Shown here piece by piece: positions 3,796 to 63,678 of a DNA stretch of 64,000 bases. The translations under genes and the position numbers were made by a program. The DNA lies in NCBI GenBank assembly GCA_016223105.1, contig JACRPR010000040.1, positions 18,940 to 82,939 of the forward strand, read 5' to 3'. Each line of letters begins with the position of its first letter. The first letter of the stretch is position 1. Below the pieces are notes generated by a model. That model was not told the DNA's origin, made no database searches, and saw only the letters and a program-made list of their open reading frames with translations. Source of the stretch: Chloroflexota bacterium (GTDB taxonomy: Bacteria > Chloroflexota > Anaerolineae > UBA4142).

Positions 3796-3860
3796 TGCAA
3801 CTCCAAATGTGGCGCGGGTGGCTCGCCCGCTTGACATTGCGGGCGAGCCGTCCGCGCGAC

Positions 3861-11134: not shown

Positions 11135-11209
11135 GTTTGTTAGTTGGATAGTTGCATAGTTGCCTGCAAACTATCCAACTATGCAACTATTCAACTTGGA
11201 GAAATGACG

Positions 11210-21241: not shown

Positions 21242-21271
21242 AACGTAAAACGTGATGCGTGATGGGAGCAT

Positions 21272-21354
21272 GTCATTGCGAGGAGCGATTTTTGCGACGA
21301 AGCAATCTCCGAACGGTGCGTGGGGATTGCTTCGCACAGAACGCTCGCAATGAC
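21272..21354. repeat. Family-A palindromic element, copy 3
   Basis: GTCATTGCGAGGAGCGATTTTTGCGACGAAGCAATCTCC...GGGGATTGCTTCGCACAGAACGCTCGCAATGAC, between hdrB and the next gene. Confidence 0.85.
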
Positions 21355-21366
21355 AAGAGTCGCGAT

Positions 21367-22758
21367 ATGTTAAACGATTCAACTAACCAACTATCCAACC
21401 ATCCAACTAACCAACCAACCGGCGCAGTCCTGGTTGTCGGCGCGGGGATTGGCGGAATGCAAGCATCGCTCGATCTCGCGGACGCCGGTTTTAAGGTGTA
21501 CTTGCTCGACCGCGCGCCCGCGATTGGCGGACGAATGGCGCAACTCGACAAAACATTTCCGACGAACGATTGCGCGATGTGCATCATGTCGCCGAAACTC
21601 GTCGAGACCGGACGCCATCTCAACATCGAAATCATCACGACCGCCGATTTGGAAAAAGTTGAAGGCGAGCCGGGAAATTTCACCGCGACGATTCGCGAGC
21701 ATCCGCGTTACGTTGATCTTTCGAAATGCACCGGGTGCGGCGATTGCGCGGCGAAATGTCCGATCACTTTGCCGGATGAATTTAATACCGGGATGAGCGC
21801 GCGCAAAGCGATTTACAAATTGTATCCGCAAGCGATTCCGAACGCGTTCGCGATTGAAAAGCGCGGCATCGCGCCGTGTCGCGACGCGTGCCCCGCGCAT
21901 CAACGCGCGATGGGTTATATCGCGCTGATTCGCGAACGCCGGTTCGCCGACGCGTATCGCGTGATCAAAGAAGACAATCCGTTTCCCTCGATTTGCGGAC
22001 GCGTCTGCATCGCGAAATGCGAGACCGCGTGCAATCGCGCGCAGTTCGATGCGCCGGTTGCGATTCGCGATTTGAAACGTTTCGTCGCGGATTGGGCGTG
22101 GAATCAGTCAGCAGTCAACAGTCAACAGTCAACAGTCGTCAGTCAACAGTCGTCAGTCAATTCCCAATTACCACTTACCAATTACCAGGTCGCAATCATT
22201 GGCTCCGGTCCCGCCGGGATGACCTGCGCGGCAGACCTGGTGCGACAAGGTTATGGCGTTACCGTGTTCGAAGCGTTGCCGGTCGCGGGCGGAATGATGC
22301 GCGTCGGCGTGCCGAATTTTCGCTTGCCGTACGACCGCGTGCAAAAAGAGATTGACGACATTCTCGCGCTTGGCGTCGAACTAAAATTGAACACGCGCAT
22401 TGATGATGTCGAAAAACTTTTCGTGGATGGATTCGATGCGGTCTTCTTCGCGGCTGGTTCACATCGCGCGCGCAAACTGCCGATCCCCAACGCGAATCAT
22501 CCCGACGCGATCCTCTCGTTGGATTTGTTGCGCGATACGAGTTTGGGAATTTCAGAATCAGGGAATCCCCAATCTGAAATCTGCAATTTGAAATCTAAAG
22601 TTGCGAATCGCCGCGTCCTGGTTTTGGGCGGCGGCGCAGTCGCGGTGGACGCGGCGACGACCGCGCGACGACTCGGCGCGTTCAGCGTTGCGATGGCTTG
22701 CCTCGACGCGCGCGCGACAATGCCCGCGACAAAAGAGGATTTGGCGCAAGCTGACTAA
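21367..22758 (+). CDS. HdrL-like giant fusion, N-terminal part (QmoA-like HdrA FAD domain, ferredoxin, NfnB/GltD Fe-S and first Rossmann domain)
   Basis: ATG at 21367 lies after the repeat. 'VVGAGIGGMQASLDLADAGFKVYLLDR...GGRMAQLDKTFPTNDCAMCIMSPK' is HdrA-type. 'CTGCGDCAAKCP'. 'CRDACPA...NPFPSICGRVCIAKCETACNR' and 'VAIIGSGPAGMTCAADL' are GltD/NfnB-type. It ends at an in-frame TAA (22756-22758) in the middle of a conserved domain. Confidence 0.8.
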   Translation: MLNDSTNQLSNHPTNQPTGAVLVVGAGIGGMQASLDLADAGFKVYLLDRAPAIGGRMAQLDKTFPTNDCAMCIMSPKLVETGRHLNIEIITTADLEKVEGEPGNFTATIREHPRYVDLSKCTGCGDCAAKCPITLPDEFNTGMSARKAIYKLYPQAIPNAFAIEKRGIAPCRDACPAHQRAMGYIALIRERRFADAYRVIKEDNPFPSICGRVCIAKCETACNRAQFDAPVAIRDLKRFVADWAWNQSAVNSQQSTVVSQQSSVNSQLPLTNYQVAIIGSGPAGMTCAADLVRQGYGVTVFEALPVAGGMMRVGVPNFRLPYDRVQKEIDDILALGVELKLNTRIDDVEKLFVDGFDAVFFAAGSHRARKLPIPNANHPDAILSLDLLRDTSLGISESGNPQSEICNLKSKVANRRVLVLGGGAVAVDAATTARRLGAFSVAMACLDARATMPATKEDLAQAD

Positions 22759-26405: not shown

Positions 26406-26483
26406 TTGGTTAGTTGCCTAGTCGCGATTGATGGCAACTATCAAACTATCAAACCATACAACTATTCAACTAGGAAACAAACG

Positions 26484-26969
26484 ATGCCAGGGCTGAATCA
26501 AGTTGATGTTAAACACATCGAAAGAATTTTGAATATCGTGTTGGACGACGCGCGTCCGCCGGTGGGACGGTGTCGTTTGCTGTCGAGCGGATTCGCGCCG
26601 TATCACACTTTGCAACTCGCGGAAAATGTTTCTGGATTCAAAGGATGTATCGGTTGCGGCAATTGCATTGACGCGTGCCCAATGCTCGCGCGCGAACCGC
26701 GTCGCCGCGCGCGCACGCCGCAACGCACCTCGTTCGCGCTCGAAGCGTTGGTCGCGGACGATTGCGACCGGTGCGATAACTGTGTCCTGGTTTGTCCGCA
26801 AGTGGACACGACCATCAAACAGTACATCGTCAATACCAGGATGGTCGAGGGGATGGCGCGACTCGTAAAAAATTTAGAGCGCGAAGAATTTTTGATTTTC
26901 GATTTCTGGTTTACAAATTCTGGAGTCGAGCGTTTACGCGGTTATTCGCCCGGACCAACAACCCGCTAA
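26484..26969 (+). CDS. 4Fe-4S dicluster ferredoxin-domain protein
   Basis: 'CIGCGNCIDACP' and 'CDRCDNCVLVCP'. ATG at 26484. The last ~15 codons are supplied by a family-C repeat. Confidence 0.65.
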   Translation: MPGLNQVDVKHIERILNIVLDDARPPVGRCRLLSSGFAPYHTLQLAENVSGFKGCIGCGNCIDACPMLAREPRRRARTPQRTSFALEALVADDCDRCDNCVLVCPQVDTTIKQYIVNTRMVEGMARLVKNLEREEFLIFDFWFTNSGVERLRGYSPGPTTR

Positions 26970-26981
26970 AGCGTCGAGTCC
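26922..26981. repeat. Family-C element, single unit
   Basis: GGAGTCGAGCGTTTACGCGGTT...CAACAACCCGCTAAAGCGTCGAGTCC. Confidence 0.85.
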
Positions 26982-27017
26982 AAGAATCGTAAATCGAAAA
27001 TCGAAAATGGAGTTGTG

Positions 27018-31173: not shown

Positions 31174-31217
31174 ATGATTTTCGATTTTTGATTTTAGATT
31201 TGACGATTGTGCGAGAC

Positions 31218-31278
31218 CTGGATTCGACGCTTTAGCGGGTTGTTCGCTTGCGATCGAACCGCGTAAACGCTCGACTCC
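31218..31278. repeat. Family-C element, single unit (inverted)
   Basis: CTGGATTCGACGCTTTAGCGGGTTGTTCG...CCGCGTAAACGCTCGACTCC. Confidence 0.85.
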
Positions 31279-31338: not shown

Positions 31339-32682
31339 ATGCCAAACAGCGCACTCGTAATCGGCGGCGGTATCGCCGGAATTCAAACCGCGCTCGATAT
31401 CGCGGATGCCGGGTTTCATGTGTATCTCGTCGAAAAAGAACCGAGCGTCGGCGGGCGAATGGCGCAACTCGACAAAACATTTCCGACGCTCGATTGTTCC
31501 GCGTGCATCCTCACGCCGAAAATGGTGGATGTCGCGCGCCATCCCAACATCGAACTCATTACGTACTCTGAAGTTTGCAATATCACAAATGGCGCAAGTG
31601 ACTTTTACGCGACAATCAAAAAGAAACCGCGTTACGTTGACACCAACAAATGTACCGGTTGCGGCAGTTGTGCGGAGGCGTGTCGTTTGAAGGGACGCGT
31701 GACCGATACGTTCAACGCGGGGATGGGCAAACGTTCCGCGATCTATGTTCCGTTTCCGCAAGCCGTTCCGCTCAAGTACACCGTGGATCCGACGCAATGC
31801 GTTTATCTCACGCGCGGCGTGTGCGGCAAAACGTTTTTGTGCAAAGACGCGTGCAAAGCGGACGCGATTGATTTCACGCAAAAAGAAGAAATCGTCGAGT
31901 TGAATGTCGGCGCGATTGTCGTCGCGACCGGGTTCGATCCGTTCGACGCCGCACTCAAACCGGAACTGGGTTACGGAATTTATCCGAACGTCATCACGTC
32001 TCTGCAATTTGAACGCTTGTCGTCCGCGTCTGGTCCGACTGCCGGAAAAATTTTGTTGAACGGCAAAGAACCGCGCGAGGTCGTGTTCGTGCAATGCGTC
32101 GGCTCGCGCGATGTGACGACCGGCAATCTGTATTGCTCGCGCGTTTGCTGTATGATTACCGCGAAGCACGCGCACCTGGTCAAAGATAAAATTCATGACG
32201 CGAACGTTACGATTTTTTACGCGGACATGCGCGCGTTCGGCAAAGGGTTTGAAGAATTTTACGACCGCGTGCGCGCGGAAGGCGTCAACTATCGGCGCGG
32301 ATACGTTTCCGAAATTTACGCCGCCGGCGGGCAGACGCCCAAACGCGATGGCAAACTTGTCGTGCGTTCCGAAGACACGCTCATCGGCAAGCCCATCGAA
32401 ACGACTGCCGATCTGGTCGTGTTGAGCGTCGGTCTCGTGCCGCGCGTCGAAACGAACACGCTCGCGCAGATTTTACAGCTCACAAATTCTAGCGACGGTT
32501 TTCTGGCGGAGGCGCATCCGAAAATGTTGCCGGTGGACACAAAAATAAACGGTGTTTACCTCGCGGGCGTCGCGCAAGGGCCGAAAGATATTCCCGACGC
32601 GGTCGCGCACGCGAAGGCGGCGGCGAGCGCGGCGATTGTGCGCTTACGCAGTCGTCAGTCGTCAGTCGCCAGTCAACAGTGA
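31339..32682 (+). CDS. QmoA-like short HdrA (FAD domain only)
   Basis: 'VIGGGIAGIQTALDIADAGFHVYLVEKEPSVGGRMAQLDKTFPTLDCSACILTPKM', 'CTGCGSCAEAC' and 'VQCVGSRD...YCSRVCCM'. It lacks the N-terminal CHCG domain and the C-terminal ferredoxin. Confidence 0.85.
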   Translation: MPNSALVIGGGIAGIQTALDIADAGFHVYLVEKEPSVGGRMAQLDKTFPTLDCSACILTPKMVDVARHPNIELITYSEVCNITNGASDFYATIKKKPRYVDTNKCTGCGSCAEACRLKGRVTDTFNAGMGKRSAIYVPFPQAVPLKYTVDPTQCVYLTRGVCGKTFLCKDACKADAIDFTQKEEIVELNVGAIVVATGFDPFDAALKPELGYGIYPNVITSLQFERLSSASGPTAGKILLNGKEPREVVFVQCVGSRDVTTGNLYCSRVCCMITAKHAHLVKDKIHDANVTIFYADMRAFGKGFEEFYDRVRAEGVNYRRGYVSEIYAAGGQTPKRDGKLVVRSEDTLIGKPIETTADLVVLSVGLVPRVETNTLAQILQLTNSSDGFLAEAHPKMLPVDTKINGVYLAGVAQGPKDIPDAVAHAKAAASAAIVRLRSRQSSVASQQ

Positions 32683-32716
32683 ACAGTGAACTGTTGACTG
32701 ACTACTTGGAGTTAAA

Positions 32717-33835: not shown

Positions 33836-33854
33836 ATTATGATTTAGGATTGTG

Positions 33855-33915
33855 TTGGATTCGACGCTTTAGCGGGTTGTTGGTCAAGCGAGTAACCGCG
33901 TAAACGCTCGACTCC
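33855..33915. repeat. Family-C element, single unit (inverted)
   Basis: TTGGATTCGACGCTTTAGCGGGTTGTTGG...CCGCGTAAACGCTCGACTCC. Confidence 0.85.
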
Positions 33916-33983
33916 ATCACTTGCGTTCCGCATAATCGGATTTTGCGCGCACACCAAATCATAAATCGAAAATCGAAAATGCT

Positions 33984-36865: not shown

Positions 36866-36887
36866 TTTCAGATTCCAAATTTTTACC

Positions 36888-36961
36888 GTCATTGCGAGCG
36901 AAGCGAAGCAATCCCCAATTTGCTACGCGGAGATTGCTTCGCATAAACCGCTCGCAATGAC
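36888..36961. repeat. Family-A palindromic element, copy 4
   Basis: GTCATTGCGAGCGAAGCGAAGCAATCCCCAA...GGAGATTGCTTCGCATAAACCGCTCGCAATGAC. Confidence 0.9.
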
Positions 36962-36987
36962 ACACTGAAATCTGAAATGGAGTTGCA

Positions 36988-38995: not shown

Positions 38996-40873
38996 ATGAT
39001 TGTCCCAATGTCCAAAATCCAAATCATCGGCACGCGCGCCGAACTCGATGCGACGGTGCGCGTCTTGCACGATGCGGGGGTCGTGCAGATCGAAGAAAAA
39101 CCGGCGGCGGTCGACGCGTTGATCCTGGATGCGCGCGCGGCGCATCAACGCGACGGAATCACCGCGCTCGTTACGCGGCTCGATGCGTTGCTCGCGCTAT
39201 TGCCCGTGGTCGCGCCAACGCAAATCGCGCGCCGCGATGATGTGGACGTGTTGATCGGACAAGTGAAAGCCGCGCTCGCACAACTCGACGCGCCCGCGCA
39301 AAACCTGGCGCGGCGACGCGATGATCTCGAAGCCGATCGCGTTACGTTGCCGCGTTATGCCAAGACGATGCGCCAACTGATGCCGCTGTCGGCTGAACTT
39401 GCGCTAATGCAAAATTACGAAACGGTCGCGCTATTGGTGGATCGCAAATTTAGCGCGGTGATCGAAATGGTGCGCGCGGAATTGCCCGCGCTGACGAACG
39501 ATGAATTTGAAATGGTGTCGCGTGAAGTGGATCGCGACACGACCGCCGCGCTCTTAGTTTTTCCGCGCGCACACTCGACTGCGATCCACACCTTGCTCGG
39601 TCGCGAAAGTATTACGCAAGTGCGTTTGCCGGATGAGTTGGTCAATGTTCCTTTCAAAGAAGCGTTGGCGACGATTCAAGCGCGGCTCGCCGCGATTCCG
39701 GCGGAAGCGGAAAAAATTCAACACGAATTGCACGCGCTCGCGCGTGAGTGGCGCGCGCGGCTCGCCGCGTGGCGCGCGGTTCTGCGCGATCGCTTGCGTG
39801 AGATCGAGGTGCGCGAAAAATTCGGCGCGACCGAGTACGCGTTTGTCGCCGTCGGTTGGATGCCGCAAAAAAATGTTTCGGCGTTGCGCGATGCGTTGGC
39901 GCGCGCGGTCGGCGAAAATGTTTTGCTCGACGAATTGCCGCTCACCGCGCACGAACGCGAACACGCCCCGGTCGTGCTGGACAATCCGCGCGTCGCGCGA
40001 CCGTTCGAGTTTTTGGTGCGCTTGATGGCACTGCCGCGTTACGGCACGATTGACCCGACGCCGATCATGGCGATCTTTTTACCGATTTTTTTCGGAATGA
40101 TTTTGGGCGATGTCGCGTACGGCGCGCTCGTGCTCGGCGGCGTGATCTATTTTTTGCGGAAACCAAAATCGGACGGCATGCGAAATTTGCTCACGATCAT
40201 GCTCTATTGCGCGTTGTGGTCAATCGCGTTTGGATTTGTGTACGGCGAATTTTTCGGCGAACTGGGCGAGCACATCGGACTGCATCCGTACTTTCCGCGC
40301 GGCGAAGCGGTTGTTCCGCTTTTTGCATTTTCGATTGCGTTCGGCATCGTGCAAATCGCGCTCGGGTTCGCGCTCGGAATTTATCAAGCGATCAAATTGC
40401 ATCAACGCAACGAACTGCTCGACCGCATCGCCAAAGTGATCGCGCTGATCGCGATTTTAGCAATGGTCGCCGCGTCGTCTGGCGCGTTGCCGAAAGAAAT
40501 GTTCACGCCCGCGCTCGCGCTGTTGATCGTCGGCACAGTGTTGTTGATGTACACGCTCGGTTGGATCGGTCTCTTGCTCGCGCCGATTGAAATTCTCGGC
40601 GTGGTCGGCAACATTTTGTCGTACTTGCGGCTCGCCGCGATTGGATTGTCGTCGGTGTATCTCGCAATGGTCGCGAACAAACTCGCCGGCATTTTCGGCA
40701 ATGTGATCATCGGCGGCATCGTCGCCGGCTTGTTTCACGCGCTCAATCTCGCGCTCGGAATTTTGAGTCCGACGATTCAATCACTGCGTTTGCATTACGT
40801 TGAATTTTTTGGAAAATTTTTTGAAGGCGGCGGCGTGGAGTTTAAACCATTTCGACGCGAAGGAATTGGATGA
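38996..40873 (+). CDS. atpI: V/A-type ATPase subunit I (a-subunit)
   Basis: 625 aa. Soluble N-terminal half plus a polytopic C-terminal half with 'LSYLRLAAIGLSSVYLA' (conserved Arg) and 'LRLHYVEFFGKFF'. Confidence 0.9.
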   Translation: MIVPMSKIQIIGTRAELDATVRVLHDAGVVQIEEKPAAVDALILDARAAHQRDGITALVTRLDALLALLPVVAPTQIARRDDVDVLIGQVKAALAQLDAPAQNLARRRDDLEADRVTLPRYAKTMRQLMPLSAELALMQNYETVALLVDRKFSAVIEMVRAELPALTNDEFEMVSREVDRDTTAALLVFPRAHSTAIHTLLGRESITQVRLPDELVNVPFKEALATIQARLAAIPAEAEKIQHELHALAREWRARLAAWRAVLRDRLREIEVREKFGATEYAFVAVGWMPQKNVSALRDALARAVGENVLLDELPLTAHEREHAPVVLDNPRVARPFEFLVRLMALPRYGTIDPTPIMAIFLPIFFGMILGDVAYGALVLGGVIYFLRKPKSDGMRNLLTIMLYCALWSIAFGFVYGEFFGELGEHIGLHPYFPRGEAVVPLFAFSIAFGIVQIALGFALGIYQAIKLHQRNELLDRIAKVIALIAILAMVAASSGALPKEMFTPALALLIVGTVLLMYTLGWIGLLLAPIEILGVVGNILSYLRLAAIGLSSVYLAMVANKLAGIFGNVIIGGIVAGLFHALNLALGILSPTIQSLRLHYVEFFGKFFEGGGVEFKPFRREGIG

Positions 40874-40874
40874 T

Positions 40875-40944
40875 GTCATTGCGAGCGAAGCGAAGCAATC
40901 CCCGCGCGACGGATTGGAGATTGCTTCACTTCGCTCGCAATGAC
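40875..40944. repeat. Family-A palindromic element, copy 5
   Basis: GTCATTGCGAGCGAAGCGAAGCAATCCCCGCG...GGAGATTGCTTCACTTCGCTCGCAATGAC, immediately after the atpI stop. Confidence 0.9.
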
Positions 40945-40962
40945 AGTGCGAAGGAGGTTACG

Positions 40963-41433: not shown

Positions 41434-41510
41434 TTTCAAATTTCATATTTCAAATTGCAAATTAACAATCTGAAATTTGAAATTTGAAATCTGAAATTGT
41501 TGGAGGATGC

Positions 41511-43227: not shown

Positions 43228-43553
43228 CGATCATCACGAATCCAACGCTCGCGCCCGGCTTTGCGCTCGCCGGTGTCCAAGTGATCGCCGCGGAGAGCGA
43301 TGCGGTCGCGCGGCGCGCGCTCGCGCGGTTGCTCGACGAAGGTGAAGCCGGGATCATTGCGCTCGACGCGCCGTACTTGGCTTCGCTCGATTACGCGACC
43401 GCGCGGCGGATTGATGAACTCGTCAAGCCGGTCGTCGTCGCTCTGCCGGTCGGCGCGCACGTTTTGCCGGAGCAACGGCGCAGTCGCCAAATCGCGGAAC
43501 TGATTCGCCGCGCGATTGGAATTCGGATGACGTTTCGGGAGAATGAACAGTGA
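43215..43553 (+). CDS. atpF: V/A-type ATPase subunit F
   Basis: 112 aa with a GTG start overlapping the atpC end. 'GFALAGV' pattern and operon position support the call. Confidence 0.75.
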   Translation: MARLTIITNPTLAPGFALAGVQVIAAESDAVARRALARLLDEGEAGIIALDAPYLASLDYATARRIDELVKPVVVALPVGAHVLPEQRRSRQIAELIRRAIGIRMTFRENEQ

Positions 43554-43618
43554 ACAGTGGGCAGTGAACAGTGAACCGTTGACTGACGACTGTTGACTGT
43601 TCACTGCAATGAGGGAAT

Positions 43619-45535: not shown

Positions 45536-45606
45536 TTTATGATTGCTGATTTATGATTTATGATTTCAGCGTGCGCGCCGCGTGTTTCAGAATGGAACTT
45601 GCGAAA

Positions 45607-45746
45607 GGAATCGAGCGTTTACGCGGTTGTTCACTGATACACGCAACCCGCTAATGAGTTTTGATTTTCAAATTCGGTAGTCATTTAGAGTCGAGCGTTT
45701 ACGCGGTTGTTCGATTGGACAAACAACCCGCTGAAGCGTCGAATCC
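45607..45746. repeat. Family-C element, tandem double unit
   Basis: Two C units are joined by the spacer CTAATGAGTTTTGATTTTCAAATTCGGTAGTCAT. A near-identical ~140-nt copy lies at 63524-63663. Confidence 0.9.
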
Positions 45747-45822
45747 AGCAATCGGATTTATGATTTTGAAACGCGCACAGTTCAAATCAGAAATCATAAA
45801 TCAGAAATCCTAAATCTGAAAT

Positions 45823-47220
45823 ATGGATACGCAAACTTCTCTTCTCACGAAGCATTACCGCACGCTCTCGTACATTTCCGGTCCGCTCGTGTTTGTCGAG
45901 CGCGTCGCGAATGTGGGGTACGGCGAAATCGTTACGATCACCGGCGCGGATGGCGCGCCGCGCGCGGGGCAAGTGCTCGAAGTGAATCGCGAGCGCGCGG
46001 TCGTCCAGGTTTTCACCGGCACGCGCGGACTCGACGCGGACACGACGCGCGCGCATTTCACCGGCAACGTCGCGCGGCTCGGCGTCGCGATGGAAATGCT
46101 GGGACGCACGCTCAACGGCGCGGGGCAACCGCTCGACGGCGGACCCGCGGTGATCCCGGAAAAATTTTTGGATATTCACGGCGAACCGATCAATCCGTAC
46201 GCGCGCGATCATCCTTCCGAATTTATTCAAACCGGGATTTCCGCGATTGATGGATTGAACACGCTCGTGCGCGGACAAAAACTGCCAATCTTTTCCGGTT
46301 ATGGTTTACCCGCGAACGAAATCGCCGCGCAAATCGCGATGCACGCGCGCGTGCTGGGCACATCCGAAAAATTCGCGGTCGTGTTCGCCGCGCTCGGCAT
46401 CACGCATCGCGAAGCATCGTTTTTCATCCAGCGTTTCGAGACGAGCGGCGCGCTCGACCGCACCGTGTTGTTTTTGAATCTCGCGGACGATCCGACGATT
46501 GAACGACTCATCACGCCGCGCGCCGCGCTGACGACTGCCGAGTATCTCGCATTTGATCAAGGTTTGCATGTGCTGGTGATCATTACCGATATGACGAATT
46601 ATTGCGAGGCATTGCGCGAGGTCGCAAACGCGCGCGAGCAAGTGCCGGGGCGGCGCGGTTATCCCGGCGATCTCTACACCGATCTCGCGACGATCTACGA
46701 ACGCGCGGGACGGATCAAAGACAAACCCGGTTCGATCACGCAGTTGATCATTTTGAATATGCCGGACGACGACATCACGCATCCGATTCCTGATCTCACC
46801 GGGTACATCACCGAAGGGCAAATCGTCTTGTCGCGCGATTTGCACCGGCGCGGCATTTATCCGCCGATTGATCCTCTGCCGTGTTTGTCGCGCTTGATGA
46901 ACGCGGGCATCGGCGCGGGTAAAACGCGCGCGGATCATCGCGGCGTCGCGGATCAACTCTATTCGTTTTACGCGCAAGGGCGCGATCTGCGCCGGCTCGT
47001 CGCGATCATCGGCGAAGCCGGGTTGGGCGCGGCGGATCGCAAGTATCTCGCGTTCGCGGATCGGTTCGAACAAGAATTTATCGGGCAGGGCGACACGAAT
47101 CGCGCGATTGAAGACACGTTGAACCTGGGTTGGGAATTATTGCGCGCGTTTCCGGCGAATGAGTTGAAGCGGATTAAGCGGGAACATATCGTAAAGTATG
47201 GGAAGGGAGAGAGGGGATGA
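45823..47220 (+). CDS. atpB: V/A-type ATPase subunit B
   Basis: 465 aa. 'GQKLPIFSG', '[12 protein letters not shown]' and '[21 protein letters not shown]' are B-subunit motifs. Confidence 0.95.
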
Positions 47221-48700: not shown

Positions 48701-51700
48701 TTATCGCGTCTTTTCGTGAGTTTCGTGATCCAAGATTTTGATCTCCTCCTCGGTCAACCCGTACAACCGATACACCAACTCGTCAATCTCGCGTTCCATT
48801 GCCGACGTGTCCGCTTCGGGATTGCGTTTCTTTGCGGACAGGATGCGGTCAACGCGCGCGATGATGGGGGCTTGCTGATCTGGATATTCAATTACGCTCT
48901 TGGGAATTGGTATTTGTGTGACATAGTAATCAATAAAGTGCATTGTTCTGATGGCGCGGTTATAAACGAAATTGTAGGCATACCAATTTGTGAAGACAGA
49001 ATGGAAATATGCCATTACAAATTTGGGCGTCAGGCGTTTATCGTTTATTTTGATTTCCACGCAAGTATCGTTGAACAAACGTCCTTGTTCATCAAGAAAC
49101 ATTGCAATGATAATGTGCGGTTGGGGATTTTGAACGTGAGCAATGATTTCTTGCGCGATTAGTTTCTCGTGACCATAATCATCAATAAATTTTCTCGCCA
49201 CACTGCGTTTGAGATAACGCAAGTTGGGTTTCAATGCATAGCGGACAATATCTACGCCTTTTACACACGGATGATTGCCTTCCGATTCAAAAGTCAAATG
49301 TGATGTGATATTAGAAATACCAATCTCTGCCCGTATAAAGGCAGAAGTATTTTCAACTGAACGACGTTTGATTTTTTCAATTAGCGGTTGCGAATAAAGT
49401 CCTTTGTAAATTTGCGCGTTTCTTAAATCCTCCGTGAAAATTGAGGGCAAAGCAAACTTACCAAAGACGCGGATCGAATTGCCTCGATTGTCCAAACATC
49501 CAATCGCAATTTCGCGCTCTGGTGTGGTTTTGCTTTTGACAACACTAAACGCAACTTGTTCCAAAAGCACTTTTTCAAATGCTTGGCTAGCATCCATTAA
49601 AAAAGCAAGCGCGTTTTGGAGCCAAAGTTTCCGAACATTCGTCCACGATTCGCCATACAACGATTTTTTCGGAATGATGAAGGTTAGCGCGCCTTGAGAG
49701 TGTACTAATTTGCCAAACGAGACCACGATAAAAACTTCTGCCACATCACCCGACGGAAATTCAATTCCGCGCTCCTTGCGGAAATATTTTTTCTCCTCTG
49801 GCGTCAGAACATTTCGGAAACCGTATGGCGGATTCCCAATGACAACATCAAATCCCTGTTTTCGGTGAAACACTTCGGAAAATAAAATTTCGAAATCGAA
49901 AAGGTGTTTGCCGTTCGTCAGGTCGTCAATCAATTCTTCAATCTCGCGTTTGTACGCGTCTTTTTTCGACTTGTCCGTCGCGTCAAAAAAGAGCGGCTTG
50001 AGTTCTTCCAATCGTTTGAACAAACGATGATTGAATAGATTTTTTTCCACGCCCAACAGCGAATTGCCCGCGACAATTTTGTAATCCAAATTCGGCAAGG
50101 GCTTGATTTCCCGCACATCCTCTTCGTCCACCACGAGCGAAAGCCACAAACGCAGTTTCGCAATCTCCACCGCGCCCGCATCAATGTCCACGCCGTACAA
50201 ACAATTCTGAATCGCGTGGCGTTTGAAATGGTACGAGACCCTAAAGGTTTCCGAAACCTTTAGGGTCTGGTCTTGCAAGTACGGCGTCAACGCATTCCGC
50301 GCGCGCACGATCTCAGTCATCATTCCGACCGGGAACGCGCCCGAACCGACGGCGGGATCGCACACCGCGATATTTGCCAACGCCTCATCAATCGCTTGCG
50401 CGTTCGGCTCAATGCTCTTGGGCATTTTGATTTTGTATTCCGCCGGCACGGATTCGTAATGCGAAATCTGTTCGCCCAAATGCACAAACGTTTCGAGGTC
50501 GGCGCGGCTGACTGTCATTGCGAGCGGTTTTTGCGAAGCAATCTCCGCGTCGCTAGTTGGGGATTGCTTCGCTTCGCTCGCAATGACAGTCGCCAGATAA
50601 TTGATCAAACTTTCCTGACACATGTACGCGACGATTTCGCGCGGCGTGTAGAACGCGCCCAGCCCCTTGCGCCGATTGTCCTCGATCAAATTTTCAAACA
50701 CCTTGCCCAGCATTTCGGGATCAATCGCCACTTCTTTTTCGAGCGGCTCGGCTTCGTTCACCGTAAAGTTGTAACGATCAAACACATCGAGAATGCCGGT
50801 GCCGCTGATCATTTCGTCCACCCGTTTGGTGTTAAAAAACAAATCGTTCGGAATCACGATTTCGGTTGCGCGCCAATCGTAATCGCCGATCGGTTCGAAC
50901 AAGCCGCCGTTGAGAAACGGGATGCGGCAGTTGAACCGCTGGCACCAATCGTCCGCGTCGCGCTTGACCGCGAGCGATTCGTAAAACAGCGGTTCGAGAA
51001 CATCGTTGAAAAAATTGGCGTGCGCGCCGAATTCACCGCGCGCGAGTCGCCGCATAAAATCGCGCGGACCCGCGCCCCAGTTCTGTCCGCGTTGCACACC
51101 CAGCCAACCCTTTTTCTGGACGAAATACAAAAAGACGATTTGCCCCAGCAATTTCTTGGCGAAATCCACCGGGCTGATATTTTTCGCAGTGAACTCGTCG
51201 CGCACGCGCTTGTCCTGGTTCACCAACTTGGCGAGATATTTGGAAATCGCGTCGAACAATTCGACATAGCGCGCGAAAAATTCTTTCGTGACCGCTTCGA
51301 CGCTGAACGCGTCCTCGATCTGCGCGAGCGTGGGATCGTTCGCGGTGTCCTGGAGCAAATCGAGAAAACGCATTTGCGCGGTGTGGCACGCTTCGCCCGC
51401 GCCGACGATGTACGAAAAGCGGCGCGCCGGCGTCAACCGGGTTTCGACGCCGATTTTGCCCGCGGCGGTTGCGGTCATCGCGTATTCCATTTTGACGTAC
51501 GAAAAGCGCCACTGCGTTTCGCTCGGCGACACGAACGCGACGAGCGCGGCGTCCTTGTCGTCGCGTTCCTTGAGATGATCGGCGACGAAATTGCGAATCG
51601 CGGTGCGCGCGCGTTCGAGTTTGGAATCGCGCGTGAGATGCACGATCAACACGTCGAGCGTTTCTTGTTCCGGCGAAGTGTACGTGCCGAGTCGCTCAAA

Positions 51701-51871
51701 GCGCGCGACGTGTTCCTTGAACGCGTCTTTGACGTATTGGCTGTTGTGCGCGAACGCTTTCGATTCGTCGAGACGATTGAGCAATTCGCGCGTCAGTTGC
51801 AAGAAACGCGCGCGATCAAACGCGGCGGTAAATGTTTCGCGGACGATGGCTTGGGCTTGGGTGCGGTTCAT
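48701..51871 (-). CDS. Eco57I/PglX-like N6-adenine DNA methyltransferase with C-terminal specificity domain
   Basis: 1056 aa with RBS GAGGAGA. 'FLYFVQKKGWLG', 'IPFLNGGLFE', SAM motif 'LGAFYTPREIVAYM...DPAVGSGAF' and catalytic 'VIGNPPYG'. The C-terminal third (48.7-49.9 kb) is AT-rich. Two palindromic repeats are inserted in frame. Confidence 0.85.
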   Translation of the reverse strand: MNRTQAQAIVRETFTAAFDRARFLQLTRELLNRLDESKAFAHNSQYVKDAFKEHVARFERLGTYTSPEQETLDVLIVHLTRDSKLERARTAIRNFVADHLKERDDKDAALVAFVSPSETQWRFSYVKMEYAMTATAAGKIGVETRLTPARRFSYIVGAGEACHTAQMRFLDLLQDTANDPTLAQIEDAFSVEAVTKEFFARYVELFDAISKYLAKLVNQDKRVRDEFTAKNISPVDFAKKLLGQIVFLYFVQKKGWLGVQRGQNWGAGPRDFMRRLARGEFGAHANFFNDVLEPLFYESLAVKRDADDWCQRFNCRIPFLNGGLFEPIGDYDWRATEIVIPNDLFFNTKRVDEMISGTGILDVFDRYNFTVNEAEPLEKEVAIDPEMLGKVFENLIEDNRRKGLGAFYTPREIVAYMCQESLINYLATVIASEAKQSPTSDAEIASQKPLAMTVSRADLETFVHLGEQISHYESVPAEYKIKMPKSIEPNAQAIDEALANIAVCDPAVGSGAFPVGMMTEIVRARNALTPYLQDQTLKVSETFRVSYHFKRHAIQNCLYGVDIDAGAVEIAKLRLWLSLVVDEEDVREIKPLPNLDYKIVAGNSLLGVEKNLFNHRLFKRLEELKPLFFDATDKSKKDAYKREIEELIDDLTNGKHLFDFEILFSEVFHRKQGFDVVIGNPPYGFRNVLTPEEKKYFRKERGIEFPSGDVAEVFIVVSFGKLVHSQGALTFIIPKKSLYGESWTNVRKLWLQNALAFLMDASQAFEKVLLEQVAFSVVKSKTTPEREIAIGCLDNRGNSIRVFGKFALPSIFTEDLRNAQIYKGLYSQPLIEKIKRRSVENTSAFIRAEIGISNITSHLTFESEGNHPCVKGVDIVRYALKPNLRYLKRSVARKFIDDYGHEKLIAQEIIAHVQNPQPHIIIAMFLDEQGRLFNDTCVEIKINDKRLTPKFVMAYFHSVFTNWYAYNFVYNRAIRTMHFIDYYVTQIPIPKSVIEYPDQQAPIIARVDRILSAKKRNPEADTSAMEREIDELVYRLYGLTEEEIKILDHETHEKTR
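50236..50268. repeat. Perfect 15+15 palindrome inside the methyltransferase CDS
   Basis: GACCCTAAAGGTTTC-C-GAAACCTTTAGGGTC encodes 'TLKVSETFRVS'. Half-sites of the same word flank the helicase-MTase spacer (51891-51905 and 51970-51984). Confidence 0.85.
50514..50587. repeat. Family-A palindromic element, copy 6, in-frame inside the methyltransferase CDS
   Basis: GTCATTGCGAGCGGTTTTTGCGAAGCAATCTCC...GGGGATTGCTTCGCTTCGCTCGCAATGAC encodes 'VIASEAKQSPTSDAEIASQKPLAMT'. Confidence 0.9.
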
Positions 51872-51890
51872 TGGGTCTCCTCATTCGAAA

Positions 51891-51984
51891 GACCCTAAGG
51901 GTTTCTTTGGTAGAGAATTCGACTGACCGGGCAAGGCACTTTGGTTGACAAGGTGGCCGGTCAGGCAAGGAAACCCTTAGGGTC
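51891..51984. repeat. Split inverted repeat in the helicase-MTase spacer
   Basis: GACCCTAAGGGTTTC (51891-51905) and GAAACCCTTAGGGTC (51970-51984) bracket an inner CTGACCGG/CCGGTCAG inverted repeat. Confidence 0.75.
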
Positions 51985-54900
51985 TGCTTCTACACCAAAT
52001 ACGACGACAGAATCACCTGCCGCGCGCCGAGCGATTGCGCGGCTTGTTGCGCGCGCGCCTGCTGCAACTGGCTGCGCAGACGCTCCGCCGCCTCGGCGAG
52101 ACGCGCTTCGCTCGTCGGATCGTCGACGGTCGTCGGCGGTGAAACCGTGATAGCGGCGAAGCTCGCGCGCCTTGAGTCGTTTGAGAATGTACGCGTCGTT
52201 CGCGCCGCCGCGCGTTTTCGGCGTCGCGTCGTCTTGCTCCGTGCTGGTCGCCTGTTCGAACGCGTGTTTGTTCTTGGCAAGCAAATCGTAAAAATCCGGC
52301 GGAATGATTGCGCGCTTTTCATTCTGATCAGCGGGGCGCAATAATTTTGCCGCCGCGAAAAAATCCAACTCGCTCGGTTCGTCCACGCCCGGCGTCGCAA
52401 GATAAAATTTATCGAGCCGACCTTGACGGAGGTACGAAAGTAGCGCGGGCGGCTCGCCCGCTGGCAGGCGAGCCGCCTGCGCTACGTGCCGCGTTGATCG
52501 CGCCTTGAGCGGCAAACGTTTGATGCGCTTGAACAATTCCGCCTGCGTGTCGCGCACCGCGCGAATTTCGGTGAGATATTCCAGTTCGCTTTCTTCTGCG
52601 CCGTCTTCGCCGGTGAGCGTCTTTTTGGAATTGAGTTTCGCAAACAGGTCGAACGATTTGATCTCTTCGCCGTCGGTGAGCAGGCGCGCGTCCGCGCCCA
52701 GCATTTCGATGAACGATTCGATTTTCGCTTCCGCCGATTCTTTCAACTTGATTTGATTGTTGCTCTCTTCGGTCGGGAAAAAGTTGTACGTGTGAATCGT
52801 GTCAAAGGTCGTGTCCACGCGATTGACGCGCCCGACGCGTTGAATGAGCCGCGTCGGATTCCACGGAATGTCGTAATTGACGACGATGTTCGAGCGATGC
52901 AAGTTGACGCCTTCCGCCAACACTTCGGTCGCGACGAGAATGCGAAAATCGTCGCGCGGATGAAACGCGCGCGCGTCGAAATTGGCGATCACTTGTTTAC
53001 GCACCGCTTCATCCGAACTGCCGGTGTACAACAGCGTCTTGGGTTCGACCTCTTTGATCAAGCGTCCCGCGAGATAGTCCGCCGTCTCTTGCGATTCGGT
53101 AAAGATAATCACCTTGCCTTTTTTCAACGGCTTGCCGCGCGCGAACAATTCGCAAAACGCTTCCCATTTGGGATCGCGTTGGATCGGCGTCCACAGTGTT
53201 TCGATGCGGCGCAATAATTTCAGGTCGGCTTGCAAATCGCGAATGAACTCGGGCGCGAAATCGCGCGCGGCGAAACGTTCTGCTTTGCCCTCCGCCAAAA
53301 GATTTTCGACGGCTTGCTCGTCGCCTTGCTCCAGCCAATCGAAAAGTTTGTTCGCGTGTTTCTCGCTGATGTACACGTTGCCCTGGCGATACGCGGCGAT
53401 CACGCGCGCGTACGATTGGATAAAGCGCGCCAACGTTTTGCGAAATGCAAAGAAACTGCTCTCTAAACGTTTGACGATCAAAATCTTCATGAACTTGGCG
53501 AGGTTGCGCTGATGTTGCACCGCGCGCGCATCCTGGCGACCTTGATAGTACGCCATCGGTTGATAACGCGCGTAGGAAAATTTTTGCGTGAGCAGTTCGA
53601 TCGTTTCGTCGAACACGGCGTTCTCGGTCGGATTGAATTTATAGTACAACGCGATGGGATCGGCGACCTCCGGAAATTGCAAACCCTGTGCGCGCAAATC
53701 GGCGCCATAGTATGTGACGATCTCACTCCGCGTGCGGCGAATCATCAGATATTTCAGCACGCGCTCGCGCGTGAGCCGCGCGTTGTCTTGCACGGTTTGA
53801 AAATAGCGCGCGCGGTCGTGTTGGCGATCCAACCCTTTGAGCGCGCCGGCGAGTCCGCCGAAAAATCCTTGCAGGTTGCGAACGTTTGGAATCGTGCTGG
53901 TCTTGCTGTTCTGAAATAATTTGATCTGGCTCAAAATATCTTGGGGTGAATTGTTGAGCGGCGTCGCCGAAACCAGGATCACGCGCTTGCCGCGACAGAT
54001 CTGCGCGAGCATTTCGTACGATTGCGTGGACTCGGTGCGAAAGCGATGCGACTCGTCAATGAACACGTTCGCGTACTTGGCGGTGTCGCGTGCGAGCAGG
54101 TCGGACAATTTGCCGATGGATTCAAAATCGGTGTGCGGCACGCGAAAATCGCCGAACACGTTGACCCAAGAACCGCGATTGTCTTTGTCCAAAAGATGCG
54201 GCGGCGCGATCACGAGCGAGCGTCCATCGAGTTGTTGCGCGAGCAATGCCGCCATATATGTCTTGCCCAAGCCGACGACATCCGCGAGAAACACGCCGCC
54301 GTACTCTTCGAGAACTTTGCGCGCGCTCAACACGGCTTCTTCCTGGTATTTCAATCGCTTGAATCCGTCGGGGACGTACAAACCTTCCAACTCGGCGGGG
54401 CGATTCAACTCGCCGCGAAAATATTCGTACAGAAATTTCAAGTAGAGTTCGTACGGGGTGAAATGCGCGTACGGCGAACGCTGGTTGATCGTATCGGCGT
54501 ACGGTTTGCTCACGTCCACGGCGGTCGCCCACAGTTCGTTGAATTTCGCCAGCGCGAAATCATAATCCGCGCGCTGTTTCAACTCGACGTTAAATTCGAG
54601 CTGGTCTTGCAAGCCGGCTTGCGTGAGATTGCTCGACCCGGTAATAACGCGCCCGGCATCGCGGTCGCCTTCATTAAACGTCATAATGTACACTTTGGCG
54701 TGAAGGTTATGTTCGGGGATCGCTTTGATTTCGAGTTTGCCGTCGCGTAGCCACTCGACAAATTTGAGGACGCCGGTTTCAAGCGCGGCAGTGTCCGGCG
54801 CGTTCTCCAATTCGGCAAGCGCGGCGCGCGCGATCTGTTCTTGCGTCGCCGCGTGCGAGGCGAACGGCAATTCGCGTTGCGCGTTCTGGATCAAATCGTG

Positions 54901-55101
54901 CACGGAGCGATCGGTTTGCAAGCCAACCAAAATGCGAATCTTGGCGACGTTTTCCAACGACGGGTAGAGTTTGTAGAAACCGCTGATAAAAAAATACCCG
55001 ACAAGACAATCGAATTGGCGCGTGTCGGCGCGGAGCAAATCCGCGAACCGTTCGCGCAAGGTCTTGCCGGGTTCGTTCGTGAGAAAGGTGAGATCGGACA
55101 T
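51961..55101 (-). CDS. PLD-nuclease-domain / SNF2-family helicase fusion protein
   Basis: The N-terminal HKD motif is 'HAKVYIM...GSSNLTQAGL'. Helicase motifs are 'LADVVGLGKT', 'FIDESHRFR', 'LVSATPLNN', 'ATEVLAEGVNL' and 'WNPTRLIQRVGRVNR'. RBS AAGGA. The last ~55 codons look out of frame; the alternative frame ends at 51990. Confidence 0.85.
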   Translation of the reverse strand: MSDLTFLTNEPGKTLRERFADLLRADTRQFDCLVGYFFISGFYKLYPSLENVAKIRILVGLQTDRSVHDLIQNAQRELPFASHAATQEQIARAALAELENAPDTAALETGVLKFVEWLRDGKLEIKAIPEHNLHAKVYIMTFNEGDRDAGRVITGSSNLTQAGLQDQLEFNVELKQRADYDFALAKFNELWATAVDVSKPYADTINQRSPYAHFTPYELYLKFLYEYFRGELNRPAELEGLYVPDGFKRLKYQEEAVLSARKVLEEYGGVFLADVVGLGKTYMAALLAQQLDGRSLVIAPPHLLDKDNRGSWVNVFGDFRVPHTDFESIGKLSDLLARDTAKYANVFIDESHRFRTESTQSYEMLAQICRGKRVILVSATPLNNSPQDILSQIKLFQNSKTSTIPNVRNLQGFFGGLAGALKGLDRQHDRARYFQTVQDNARLTRERVLKYLMIRRTRSEIVTYYGADLRAQGLQFPEVADPIALYYKFNPTENAVFDETIELLTQKFSYARYQPMAYYQGRQDARAVQHQRNLAKFMKILIVKRLESSFFAFRKTLARFIQSYARVIAAYRQGNVYISEKHANKLFDWLEQGDEQAVENLLAEGKAERFAARDFAPEFIRDLQADLKLLRRIETLWTPIQRDPKWEAFCELFARGKPLKKGKVIIFTESQETADYLAGRLIKEVEPKTLLYTGSSDEAVRKQVIANFDARAFHPRDDFRILVATEVLAEGVNLHRSNIVVNYDIPWNPTRLIQRVGRVNRVDTTFDTIHTYNFFPTEESNNQIKLKESAEAKIESFIEMLGADARLLTDGEEIKSFDLFAKLNSKKTLTGEDGAEESELEYLTEIRAVRDTQAELFKRIKRLPLKARSTRHVAQAARLPAGEPPALLSYLRQGRLDKFYLATPGVDEPSELDFFAAAKLLRPADQNEKRAIIPPDFYDLLAKNKHAFEQATSTEQDDATPKTRGGANDAYILKRLKARELRRYHGFTADDRRRSDERSASRRGGGASAQPVAAGARATSRAIARRAAGDSVVVFGVEADPKGFLA

Positions 55102-58868: not shown

Positions 58869-60038
58869 TTAATAACACGCGATGACGTTCACATCGTCAA
58901 TAAAGAAACTGGTTTCATCGCTTCCATCAGTGGTCGCGGAAAAAACAATGCGAATCGTTTGTCCGGCAAAAGCCGGTGAAACTGGGATCACCAATTCCGC
59001 CCACGCCGAATTCACATCGCCATCGTAGAAGGTGTATAACGTTTGAAGCACGGTTCCATTCGCATCGGTGATCTGCACATCGAGCCAGTCGTTGATGAAC
59101 GGCATACTCTCGCTCGTGGTCACGCGCCACCAAAAGCGCACTTGCAAACTCCACGCGCTTGCCGGCACGGTGAACGTTTGCCACACACTTTCTTGCACAA
59201 CATTGTCGCCGCCGAGCCACGCTTTCCACGAGCCGCTGTGCGCGGGCGTCGGAAATGGAATCGCCGAGTTGTCGAGAATTTCGCTGAACTTGTTACTGCT
59301 CGTTTGCCAATACGCGTTCGGTAAACCGGCTTCGAAACTACTGTCGCTAATCAGTTGAATCGGACTACAAATCGGTGTATTGGTCGGCGTCGGTGTATTC
59401 GTCGGCGTGTGCGTCGCAGTGCTTGTGGATGTTGGTGTATTCGTCGGCGTGTGCGTCGCGGTGTTTGTGGATGTTGGTGTGTGCGTTGGCGTGTGAGTCG
59501 CGGTGTTTGTGGATGTCGGTGTATTTGTTGGCGTGTGCGTCGCGGTGTTTGTGGATGTTGGTGTATTTGTTGGCGTGTGCGTCGCGGTGCTTGTGGATGT
59601 CGGTGTATTTGTTGGCGTGTGCGTCGCGGTGTTTGTGGATGTCGGTGTGTGTGTTAGCGTGATCGTTCCAGTGCTCGTAGATGTTGGTGTGTTGGTTGCT
59701 GTGCTTGTCGCGGTATTTGTTGATGTTGATGTATTCGTCGCGGTATTTGTTGATGTTGATGTATTCGTCGCGGTACTTGTTGATGTTGATGTATTCGTCG
59801 CCGTACTCGTTGGTGTGCGCGTGGATGTCGCGGTGCTTGTCCGGGTTGGTGATGGCGTGGGTGAGACGGTGGGTTGAGAAATGAGCGTTACGTTCACCTG
59901 GATCGCGGGAAGGAAAATGAGATAGGTAGGTTCTGCCGCGTGCGCGATTTGAATCGGGGCGCGAAGCGATTGCAGGATCAATCCAGCGATGGATAAAGTG
60001 ACGTAAATAAAAATCAGATACCAGAAGAAACGACGCAT
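58869..60038 (-). CDS. Membrane-anchored or secreted protein with long Thr/Pro/Asn tandem repeats and a C-terminal jelly-roll-like domain
   Basis: N-terminal hydrophobic helix. About 190 aa of '[14 protein letters not shown]'-type repeats. A non-repetitive C-terminal domain of about 165 aa follows. Confidence 0.7.
59380..59870. repeat. Coding tandem repeat (about 42-bp period, degenerating to shorter periods)
   Basis: The plus strand repeats GTGGATGTTGGTGTATTCGTCGGCGTGTGCGTCGC(A/G)GTG(C/T)TT many times. This corresponds to the Thr/Pro/Asn repeats of CDS 58869..60038. Confidence 0.9.
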
Positions 60039-60135: not shown

Positions 60136-60176
60136 TCTCTTTCGACTGGTCAGGTCGTAAGCGTTCAGCCCCATCC

Positions 60177-60275
60177 GTCATTGCGAGCGGTTTTTGCGAA
60201 GCAATCCCCGACTTGGTCGATCCGGACTTGCAACGCGGAGATTGCTTCGTCGCAAAAACCGCTCCTCGCAATGAC
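60177..60275. repeat. Family-A palindromic element, copy 8 (long form)
   Basis: GTCATTGCGAGCGGTTTTTGCGAAGCAATCCCC...GGAGATTGCTTCGTCGCAAAAACCGCTCCTCGCAATGAC. Confidence 0.9.
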
Positions 60276-60296
60276 ACCTGAACGGTTACGTCAGGT

Positions 60297-63502: not shown

Positions 63503-63523
63503 TGTGCAGTCCTTGTTTATGAA

Positions 63524-63663
63524 TGGCGTCGAGCGTTTACGCGGTGGCTGGTTGGCGCGACCACCCGCTAATGAGTTTTGCTTTTCAAATTCGGTAATCA
63601 TCTGGAATCGAGCGTTTACGCGGTTGTTCGGTCGGACAAACAACCCGCTAAAGCGTCGAATCC
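63524..63663. repeat. Family-C element, tandem double unit, copy 2
   Basis: Near-identical to 45607-45746, including the spacer CTAATGAGTTTTGCTTTTCAAATTCGGTAATCAT. Confidence 0.9.
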
Positions 63664-63678
63664 AGCAATCGCGAAAAA

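Follow-up and report, generated by a model that had tools for sequence, protein, structure and literature searches.

Palindromic repeats that lie in frame within protein-coding genes are best compared with the Rickettsia palindromic elements (RPEs) of Ogata et al. 2000. As far as the summary in PMC10969869 describes them, these are approximately 100-150 bp long and confined to Rickettsia. Additionally, intragenic copies of repetitive extragenic palindromic sequences (REPs) have been described in genes that include those of tRNA synthetases and repair proteins, and different REPs have been observed at about the same site of recB (Di Nocera et al. 2013, PMC3733652). Here we analyse a window of 64,000 nucleotides from a Chloroflexota bacterium (assembly GCA_016223105.1, contig JACRPR010000040.1, positions 18,940 to 82,939; coordinates below count from the first letter of this window), in which two different palindromic elements, called family A and family B in what follows, lie in frame inside a single gene for an N6-adenine DNA methyltransferase. 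With a probability of about 0.75, both are non-autonomous palindromic repeats, that is, selfish DNA resembling REPs or MITEs (transposable elements of miniature size with inverted repeats), which behave as RPEs do and have been kept only in permissive loops of the enzyme. The three features on which this proposal is built are the following:

48701-51871, minus strand: N6-adenine DNA methyltransferase, 1056 amino acids, ATG start, open reading frame (ORF) free of stops
50513-50588, minus strand: family-A element, 76 nt, in frame, encoding residues 429-453 (VIASEAKQSPTSDAEIASQKPLAMT)
50236-50268, no strand assigned: short form of family B, a perfect 33-nt palindrome, in frame, encoding Q535-TLKVSETFRV-S546 on the minus strand

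As in the RPEs of that summary, the repeats are dispersed palindromes found in frame in unrelated genes, some of them essential, and translated as extra peptide; they appear to occupy sites that the fold tolerates and are absent from orthologues. In fact, both elements belong to dispersed palindromic families, are free of stops within a genuine ORF and are missing from close orthologues. They differ from RPEs in size (33, 76 and approximately 96 nt), in their unrelated sequence and in their free-living Chloroflexota hosts, and family A replaces a native linker rather than adding sequence to it.

The elements also recall the systems formed by REPs, their doublets (REPINs) and REP-associated tyrosine transposases (RAYTs), reportedly the subject of work by Bertels and Rainey in 2011. 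The likeness lies in short palindromes of high copy number, mostly placed just downstream of genes and sometimes inside ORFs, in a putative association with a Y1 transposase gene and, for family B, in the coexistence of a hairpin with a doublet-like long form. By contrast, the ends of family A (TGTCATTGCGAG) and family B (AGACCCTAA) lack the GTAG/CGTC tag, and the GTAG tag is found here only on a third repeat, family C (52440-52485). Moreover, the 16-nt termini of family B are conserved across several Chloroflexota lineages, beyond a single species, and its link to a transposase is statistical (4 of approximately 118 loci), no such gene being present in the window. With MITEs such as Correia/NEMIS, ERIC and Nezha the elements share terminal inverted repeats, a length of roughly 70-100 nt, the lack of coding capacity, lineage-specific variants that proliferate within a genome and occasional in-frame fusions to host ORFs. 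Unlike in MITEs, no target-site duplication was seen and no parent insertion sequence (IS) with the same ends was identified among the fetched loci; moreover, no MITE is as short as the 33-nt form.

The host protein is a gamma-class enzyme with a TaqI-like specificity domain and an architecture that resembles type IIG/IIL. Pfam matches it to Eco57I (8.5e-29) as well as N6_Mtase, MmeI_Mtase and TaqI_C, PADLOC matches residues 1-761 to REase_MTase_IIG (PDLC03596, 4.5e-225), and these domains flank both elements on either side within the 1056-codon ORF. The best fold matches found by Foldseek were CamA, BrxX/PglX, M.BseCI, MmeI, BpuSI and M.TaqI, at only 12-14% identity to the solved structures, and a sequence search of the PDB agreed with them. 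The motifs X (FYTPREIV), I (DPAVGSGAF) and IV (NPPYG) are all intact and follow the order expected of Eco57I/MmeI-type enzymes (YTPxxIV, DPAxGSG, NPPY, then the TaqI-like domain), an assignment on which Pfam, the alignments, the PDB search and Foldseek agree. MmeI, BpuSI, BrxX/PglX and CamA have the same X-I-IV order, Eco57I/MmeI domain and TaqI-like domain; the gene described here differs from them in that it does not stand alone but shares a conserved two-gene operon with a PLD-SNF2 helicase. The conservation of this helicase partner suggests that the nuclease may come in trans. A protein with 100% identity is present at NCBI from a Chloroflexi metagenome-assembled genome (MAG). Homologues were compared in a set of 120 sequences (the window protein and 119 others), and in the 311 columns conserved in at least 90% of them the window protein deviates at 3, the median over the 120 being 6.

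A reading of this DNA from its letters alone (the sequence-only reading) had already pointed to two palindromic elements inside the gene. Both are confirmed, and so is their order in the protein, in which FYTPREIV is followed by family A, DPAVGSGAF, the palindrome and NPPYG. Its suggestion that both might be tolerated as loops is consistent with an AlphaFold2 model built from the 120 sequences (mean predicted local distance difference test score, pLDDT, 80; predicted template modelling score, pTM, 0.64), which replaced an earlier model from 24 sequences that was too poor (pLDDT 62). In this model, both inserts are predicted to be coil between helices.

Site 1 is the linker between motifs X and I. 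The core of the family-A element, GTCATTGCGAGC...GCTCGCAATGAC, lies at 50514-50587, alignment of the window copies places its ends (TGTCATTGCGAG...CTCGCAATGACA) at 50513-50588, and in the methyltransferase copy the inverted repeat extends to 50510-50591. Folded in the mRNA sense, it reaches -49.9 kcal/mol (z -10.8). In the closest relatives (P0008 and P0049; P numbers denote homologous proteins and L numbers DNA loci), LINYL(D/A)T is followed by a native segment of approximately 36 residues, AINTRDESVVPQKPQ...TLTMTTHNEI. The window protein has no native segment at this site, and the 25 element-encoded residues 429-453 occupy its place. Family A is a replacement of the native linker and no pure insertion. 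This linker is hypervariable across the family (in 116 homologues, motifs X to I span 82-131 residues), and in the model residues 436-455 form a coil between helices 410-435 and 456-473, residues 437-450 having a pLDDT below 50. Family A is open in three or four of its six frames, and the one used here is hydrophilic and free of Cys. The native linker was also considered as an old hairpin element and rejected, as its fold z-scores were -0.03, -1.0 and +0.3. Odd linkers of low complexity were noticed at this site, at the protein level, in P0059, P0112, P0060 and P0019.

Site 2 is the loop that joins the helix after motif I to the helix leading into motif II. The palindrome found here, AGACCCTAAAGGTTTC-C-GAAACCTTTAGGGTCT, is perfect, as had been claimed, with arms of 16+1+16 instead of the 15+15 first counted; at 95% the arms reach 19 nt (50233-50271). 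Dinucleotide-preserving shuffles gave 0 matches to it, and it folds at -23.6 kcal/mol (z -5.4). The net gain in the window is 7 codons, placed between ...PYLQD and R-x-x-YHFKRH, and the palindrome supplies an AGG codon where the near-invariant Arg544 stands. The model shows residues 532-545 as coil between helices 512-531 and 546-556.

The flanks of both elements are colinear and in frame with homologues, both in an alignment of 24 sequences and codon by codon against the DNA of three close homologues (L001, L002 and L003), and share 65-79% identity with the same protein family. Codon alignment and the analysis of nearest relatives indicate that P0008, P0049, P0045 and P0002 (approximately 70-79% identity in alignments) have neither element; at both sites, orthologues hold unrelated native residues or nothing. 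Consequently, residues homologous to those encoded by the elements are absent from orthologues, in the sense intended by the sequence-only reading. Its proposal that the elements are insertions holds in that the closest relatives lack them and needs correction in that family A replaces a linker of approximately 36 residues and the palindrome nets only 7 codons. By contrast, its idea of phase-variable defence, or of any switching at the DNA level, finds no support. No simple-sequence tract or invertible arrangement was found at the elements, and no closer allele was found among 5.8 billion proteins, where the 90% cluster has a single member and the next match is approximately 79% identical. Likewise, metagenome contigs gave no exact match to a 24-mer taken from the stretch that separates the two sites. 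Additionally, no terminator- or promoter-like site was predicted at either element, Rfam holds no family that matches family A or the 33-nt palindrome, and no target-site duplication was seen beside either element or the other copies.

Repeats recur at the same two sites in homologues. The family-A peptide (VIASEAKQS...EIASSQ..LLAMT) is also present at site 1 in P0044, P0052, P0099 and P0106/P0116, with junctions that vary, and an unrelated 'TSEV..TSEV' palindrome fills the site-1 linker of P0070, P0079, P0100 and P0101. The site-1 inserts in L122-L125 are full hairpins at the DNA level. In each case, the nearest relatives of a family-A carrier, by identity of the conserved core, are without family A. 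For instance, P0044 is 92% identical to P0058, which retains the native linker. These relationships imply that family A was gained at site 1 about five times, at least four of these gains being additional to that in the window protein; recombination between homologues may have contributed, and P0044 and P0099 may share one event. At site 2, some ten further homologues have extra residues (roughly 1-40), among them P0019, P0038, P0052, P0055, P0115 and P0030/31/35. The insert of P0052 (L122:5627-5740) consists of two tandem 'CCCTCCCC...GGGGAGGG' hairpins, a 23-nt part of which recurs in the unrelated contig L195.

Both elements are copies of dispersed families, as had been supposed from the letters and as scans of the window, of metagenomes and of genomes bear out. 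The window holds six copies of family A. The 11-mer GTCATTGCGAG occurs 16 times with at most one mismatch, against 2.1 expected, and the fold z-scores of the repeat elements overall range from -5.4 to -12.2. In addition to the methyltransferase copy, the family-A copies, none of which has an assigned strand, are:

36887-36962 (matched segment 36885-36962): closest copy, intergenic and in the opposite orientation, with a 94% match to the copy in the methyltransferase
40874-40945: copy directly after the end of ORF 38996-40873
21271-21355: copy at a gene boundary
60176-60276: intergenic copy with an enlarged loop
19609-19687: divergent intergenic variant (TGTCATTTTGAGCG...)

The 94% match of the first of these indicates a recent common origin with the copy in the methyltransferase. 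The claim that both elements are otherwise intergenic holds for family A, whose other copies lie at gene boundaries; for the palindrome, the window contains no second short copy, and its only relative there is an intergenic long form (see below). An exact 26-mer of family A is found in at least 120 metagenome contigs. A metagenome sample comprised 135 copies, 99 of which have recognisable ends and 11 of which lie in long open frames. Among the 10 of these 11 that were tested, nine ORFs lack a Pfam domain and in the tenth the element lies upstream of the domain, so that 0/10 candidate ORFs of this sample could be verified as carrying family A in the interior of a gene; this suggests that genic copies are rare. 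A protein search with the doubled family-A peptide is uninformative as a census, since it retrieved just 19 short hypothetical ORFs and failed to recover the methyltransferases known to carry the element. In a separate observation, a unit of 121 nt made of halves of family-A elements is repeated 8.8 times in tandem, at 97% identity, in L146:3908-4975.

The palindrome itself is, as judged by its sequence, the termini-only form of a repeat that is found throughout Chloroflexota and has conserved 16-nt ends. Its relative in the window is the following:

51890-51985, no strand assigned: long form of family B, approximately 96 nt, in the spacer between helicase and methyltransferase genes, 18 nt upstream of the ATG

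This copy has inverted termini of 16-20 nt that enclose an interior of 56-64 nt, and folds at -43.9 kcal/mol (z -6.8). In a scan of species-representative genomes, the termini (AGACCCTAARGGTTTC) were found at more than 118 loci. Among the matches listed, those with a partner arm all belong to Chloroflexota (among others to Anaerolineae, Caldilineaceae, Herpetosiphon and Ardenticatenaceae), except for one MAG labelled Bacteroidota and one labelled only 'bacterium'; isolated single-arm matches in other phyla look like chance. The matches listed comprise 43 short hairpins (32-37 nt) and 50 longer forms, mostly of 94-98 nt, and the same short form of 33-35 nt is present in many Chloroflexota MAGs. 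In general, the long form has inverted 16-nt termini, which singly are not palindromes, around a spacer of 62-66 nt that is constant in length and variable in sequence. The interiors are alike only within one genome, and the 16-nt termini are constant everywhere.

The methyltransferase is not the only gene with family B in frame. In L042, a hairpin at 2823-2856 encodes EDPKGFQKPLGS within a 991-codon ORF for valyl-tRNA synthetase (L042:1986-4958, minus strand), between the catalytic and anticodon-binding domains. Similarly, copies are in frame in an M20 peptidase (L062), between the N and C domains of a heparinase II/III-like protein (L052) and in the C-terminal part of RecJ (L007). A Y1 transposase gene is present at 4 of approximately 118 family-B loci selected by motif (L062, L092, L113 and L116), with Pfam matches to Y1_Tnp at threshold (approximately 23 bits) and elements beside or inside the ORFs. 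In L092, L113 and L116, a long form of approximately 95 nt is in frame within the transposase, between the HUH and Tyr regions, and has conserved termini and a diverged interior. The IS200-like, RAYT-like ORFs in question are L092:6491-7195, L113:3496-4368, L116:5789-6496 and L062:4243-4767.

These observations are consistent with a model in which copies would insert more or less anywhere and selection would purge those that break the protein, with the consequence that survivors would be frame-preserving, free of stops and hydrophilic, and would sit in permissive loops. In the enzyme studied here, the survivors would be translated as a replacement linker of 25 residues and a loop extension of 7 residues. 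The methyltransferase probably still methylates DNA, to judge by its conserved residues, and the elements would act as passengers, with nothing that points to a regulatory role. Family B would probably be mobilised by a Y1 transposase of the IS200-like (RAYT-like) type encoded elsewhere in such genomes.

Several points weigh against this model. Retained function of the methyltransferase is itself deduced from sequence, and selection on the module may already be relaxed, as the partner helicase shows a 3′ deletion and a frameshift and a repeat splits the two genes. That two inserts kept the frame and avoided stops by chance would be improbable, at roughly 5-10%, but possible. Neither element has a target-site duplication and the window encodes no transposase; the mechanism of insertion is accordingly putative. 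Finally, all family-A inserts in these methyltransferases share orientation and frame, which would fit selection for a hydrophilic peptide free of Cys, but exchange of the linker by recombination between homologues could also explain it.

The rival that survives best, although we regard it as unlikely, is that the restriction-modification-like module is being inactivated in this genome, so that the inserts would be neutral scars of a gene that no longer matters and the frame would be open only by recent coincidence. It draws on the state of the genes around the elements:

51961-55101, minus strand: PLD(HKD)-SNF2 helicase, called ORF of 1046 amino acids (Pfam PLDc_2, SNF2-rel_dom and Helicase_C; PADLOC HKD+Snf2, DrmD-like)
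51990-52150, minus strand: out-of-frame remnant of the helicase C-terminus (...QQARAQQAAQSLGARQVILSSYLV*), upstream limit approximate
52440-52485, no strand assigned: family-C palindrome, GTAG-tagged, 22-nt arms at 91%, in frame in the helicase, encoding HVAQAARLPAGEPPALL
3809-3860, no strand assigned: second family-C copy, between ORFs

The helicase lies directly upstream of the methyltransferase on the same strand, and the pair is also found in L122, L124, L125, L002 and L003, which indicates a conserved two-gene module. The 3′ end of the helicase (51990-52200) is approximately 100 nt shorter than in homologues, with a frameshift after ...RRYHGFTADD, and the called ORF ends inside the long form of family B. 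In a three-frame translation, the remnant matches the ...TRAQQSAQTISARQVILSSYLM of homologues only in another frame (tail ...ARQVILSSYLV). The two genes overlap or abut in homologous operons and are separated here by the family-B long form, and four palindromic elements are found in 6.4 kb. The frameshift could be either a recent pseudogenisation or an error of MAG assembly and keeps decay alive as an explanation, but the conserved state of the out-of-frame tail argues that it is very recent or such an error. Furthermore, the methyltransferase is intact over 1056 codons, its 3 deviations in 311 conserved columns are fewer than in most homologues, and inserts of this kind occupy these sites in homologues whose operons are intact.

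Other palindromes occur around this module. The family-C copy of the helicase matches the native segment in length, that site is occupied by a family-A-like insert in the helicase of L122, and Rfam gave only chance miRNA-like matches to the family-C palindrome. The region of the frameshift was considered as a degraded element and rejected, since the scores of local alignments lay inside the range given by shuffles or barely exceeded it. The spacers of the helicase-methyltransferase operons of L125 and L122 also hold unrelated palindromes, such as GACCTGACAGGTTTTAGAAACCTGTCAGGTC in L125.

Doubtful in our view is that the two loops are preferred sites of landing or retention, which repeatedly capture unrelated hairpin repeats (family A, 'TSEV', the 'GEG' type and other unclassified inserts). 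Such a preference could arise if the insertion machinery were drawn to the DNA of methyltransferase loops, or if a defence enzyme profited from change in a surface loop, for instance by escape from Ocr-type inhibitors. Phage inhibitors of this type bind BrxX/PglX. That unrelated families of repeats have colonised the same two loops time and again is the sole feature of this locus that goes beyond the ordinary.

A role for the hairpins or peptides themselves, selected as a source of loop diversity, as a means of tuning translation or mRNA stability or as an excisable switch, is improbable. Such a role would fit the finding that several lineages have captured unrelated repeats at these two loops more than once, as well as the very stable mRNA hairpins and the apparent rarity of genic family-A copies in a random metagenome sample (0/10 tested verified), but permissive loops combined with purifying selection predict the same pattern, and hypervariable length is a property of the native linker itself (the span of 82-131 residues given above). 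Moreover, the elements carry no terminator or promoter signal, no alleles with and without them were found by the protein cluster search or the 24-mer scan of metagenomes, and excision of family A would not bring back the native linker.

An artefact (a wrong ORF call, a misassembly at the repeats or a palindrome produced by local template switching) is very improbable and already largely refuted. In its favour, the contig comes from a MAG, in which repeats can cause chimeric joins, and the window has no short copy other than this palindrome. Against it, each element is flanked on either side by sequence that is colinear and in frame at the identities given above, elements of 33-76 nt could be spanned by an ordinary short read, and the identical 33-nt form and near-identical termini are dispersed over dozens of other Chloroflexota genomes, for which reason local template switching is also rejected.

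If the elements are indeed selfish repeats kept in permissive loops, free-living Chloroflexota would join Rickettsia and a few Proteobacteria as bacteria with selfish DNA inside protein-coding genes. The enzyme family would offer a natural experiment, in which two loops of one conserved protein have been independently colonised by several unrelated families of repeats, and both loops would mark positions that tolerate insertions and could be useful for engineering enzymes similar to MmeI or BrxX. For annotation, caution is advisable, as peptides derived from repeats ('...SEAKQS...LAMT', 'TLKVSETFRV' or 'DPKGF..KPLGS') may truly belong to a protein. The analysis also defines a repeat that is spread across Chloroflexota, whose 16-nt termini are conserved and for which a Y1 transposase is a candidate. 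The locus reveals no new defence mechanism or switch; were the loops preferred sites at which change is advantageous, selfish repeats would offer defence proteins a ready supply of loop diversity.

Other repeats are scattered over the window. A further dispersed family with the core GAGTCGAGCGTTTACGCGGTT...AACCCGCTAAAGCGT, unrelated to families A, B and C, is present in both orientations at 26881-26989, 31211-31244, 33853-33923, 45606-45754 and 63523-63672. A tandem repeat at 59288-59851, with a 42-nt period, approximately 10 or more copies and 61-100% identity, overlaps the ORF at 58869-60038 (minus strand). Additionally, runs of 7-8-nt units of the CAGTCAA, AAATCTG and CAACTAT types are found at many intergenic sites (22090-22164, 32634-32708 and 43533-43607; 41437-41497 and 45776-45836; 11167-11208, 21371-21420 and 26434-26483).

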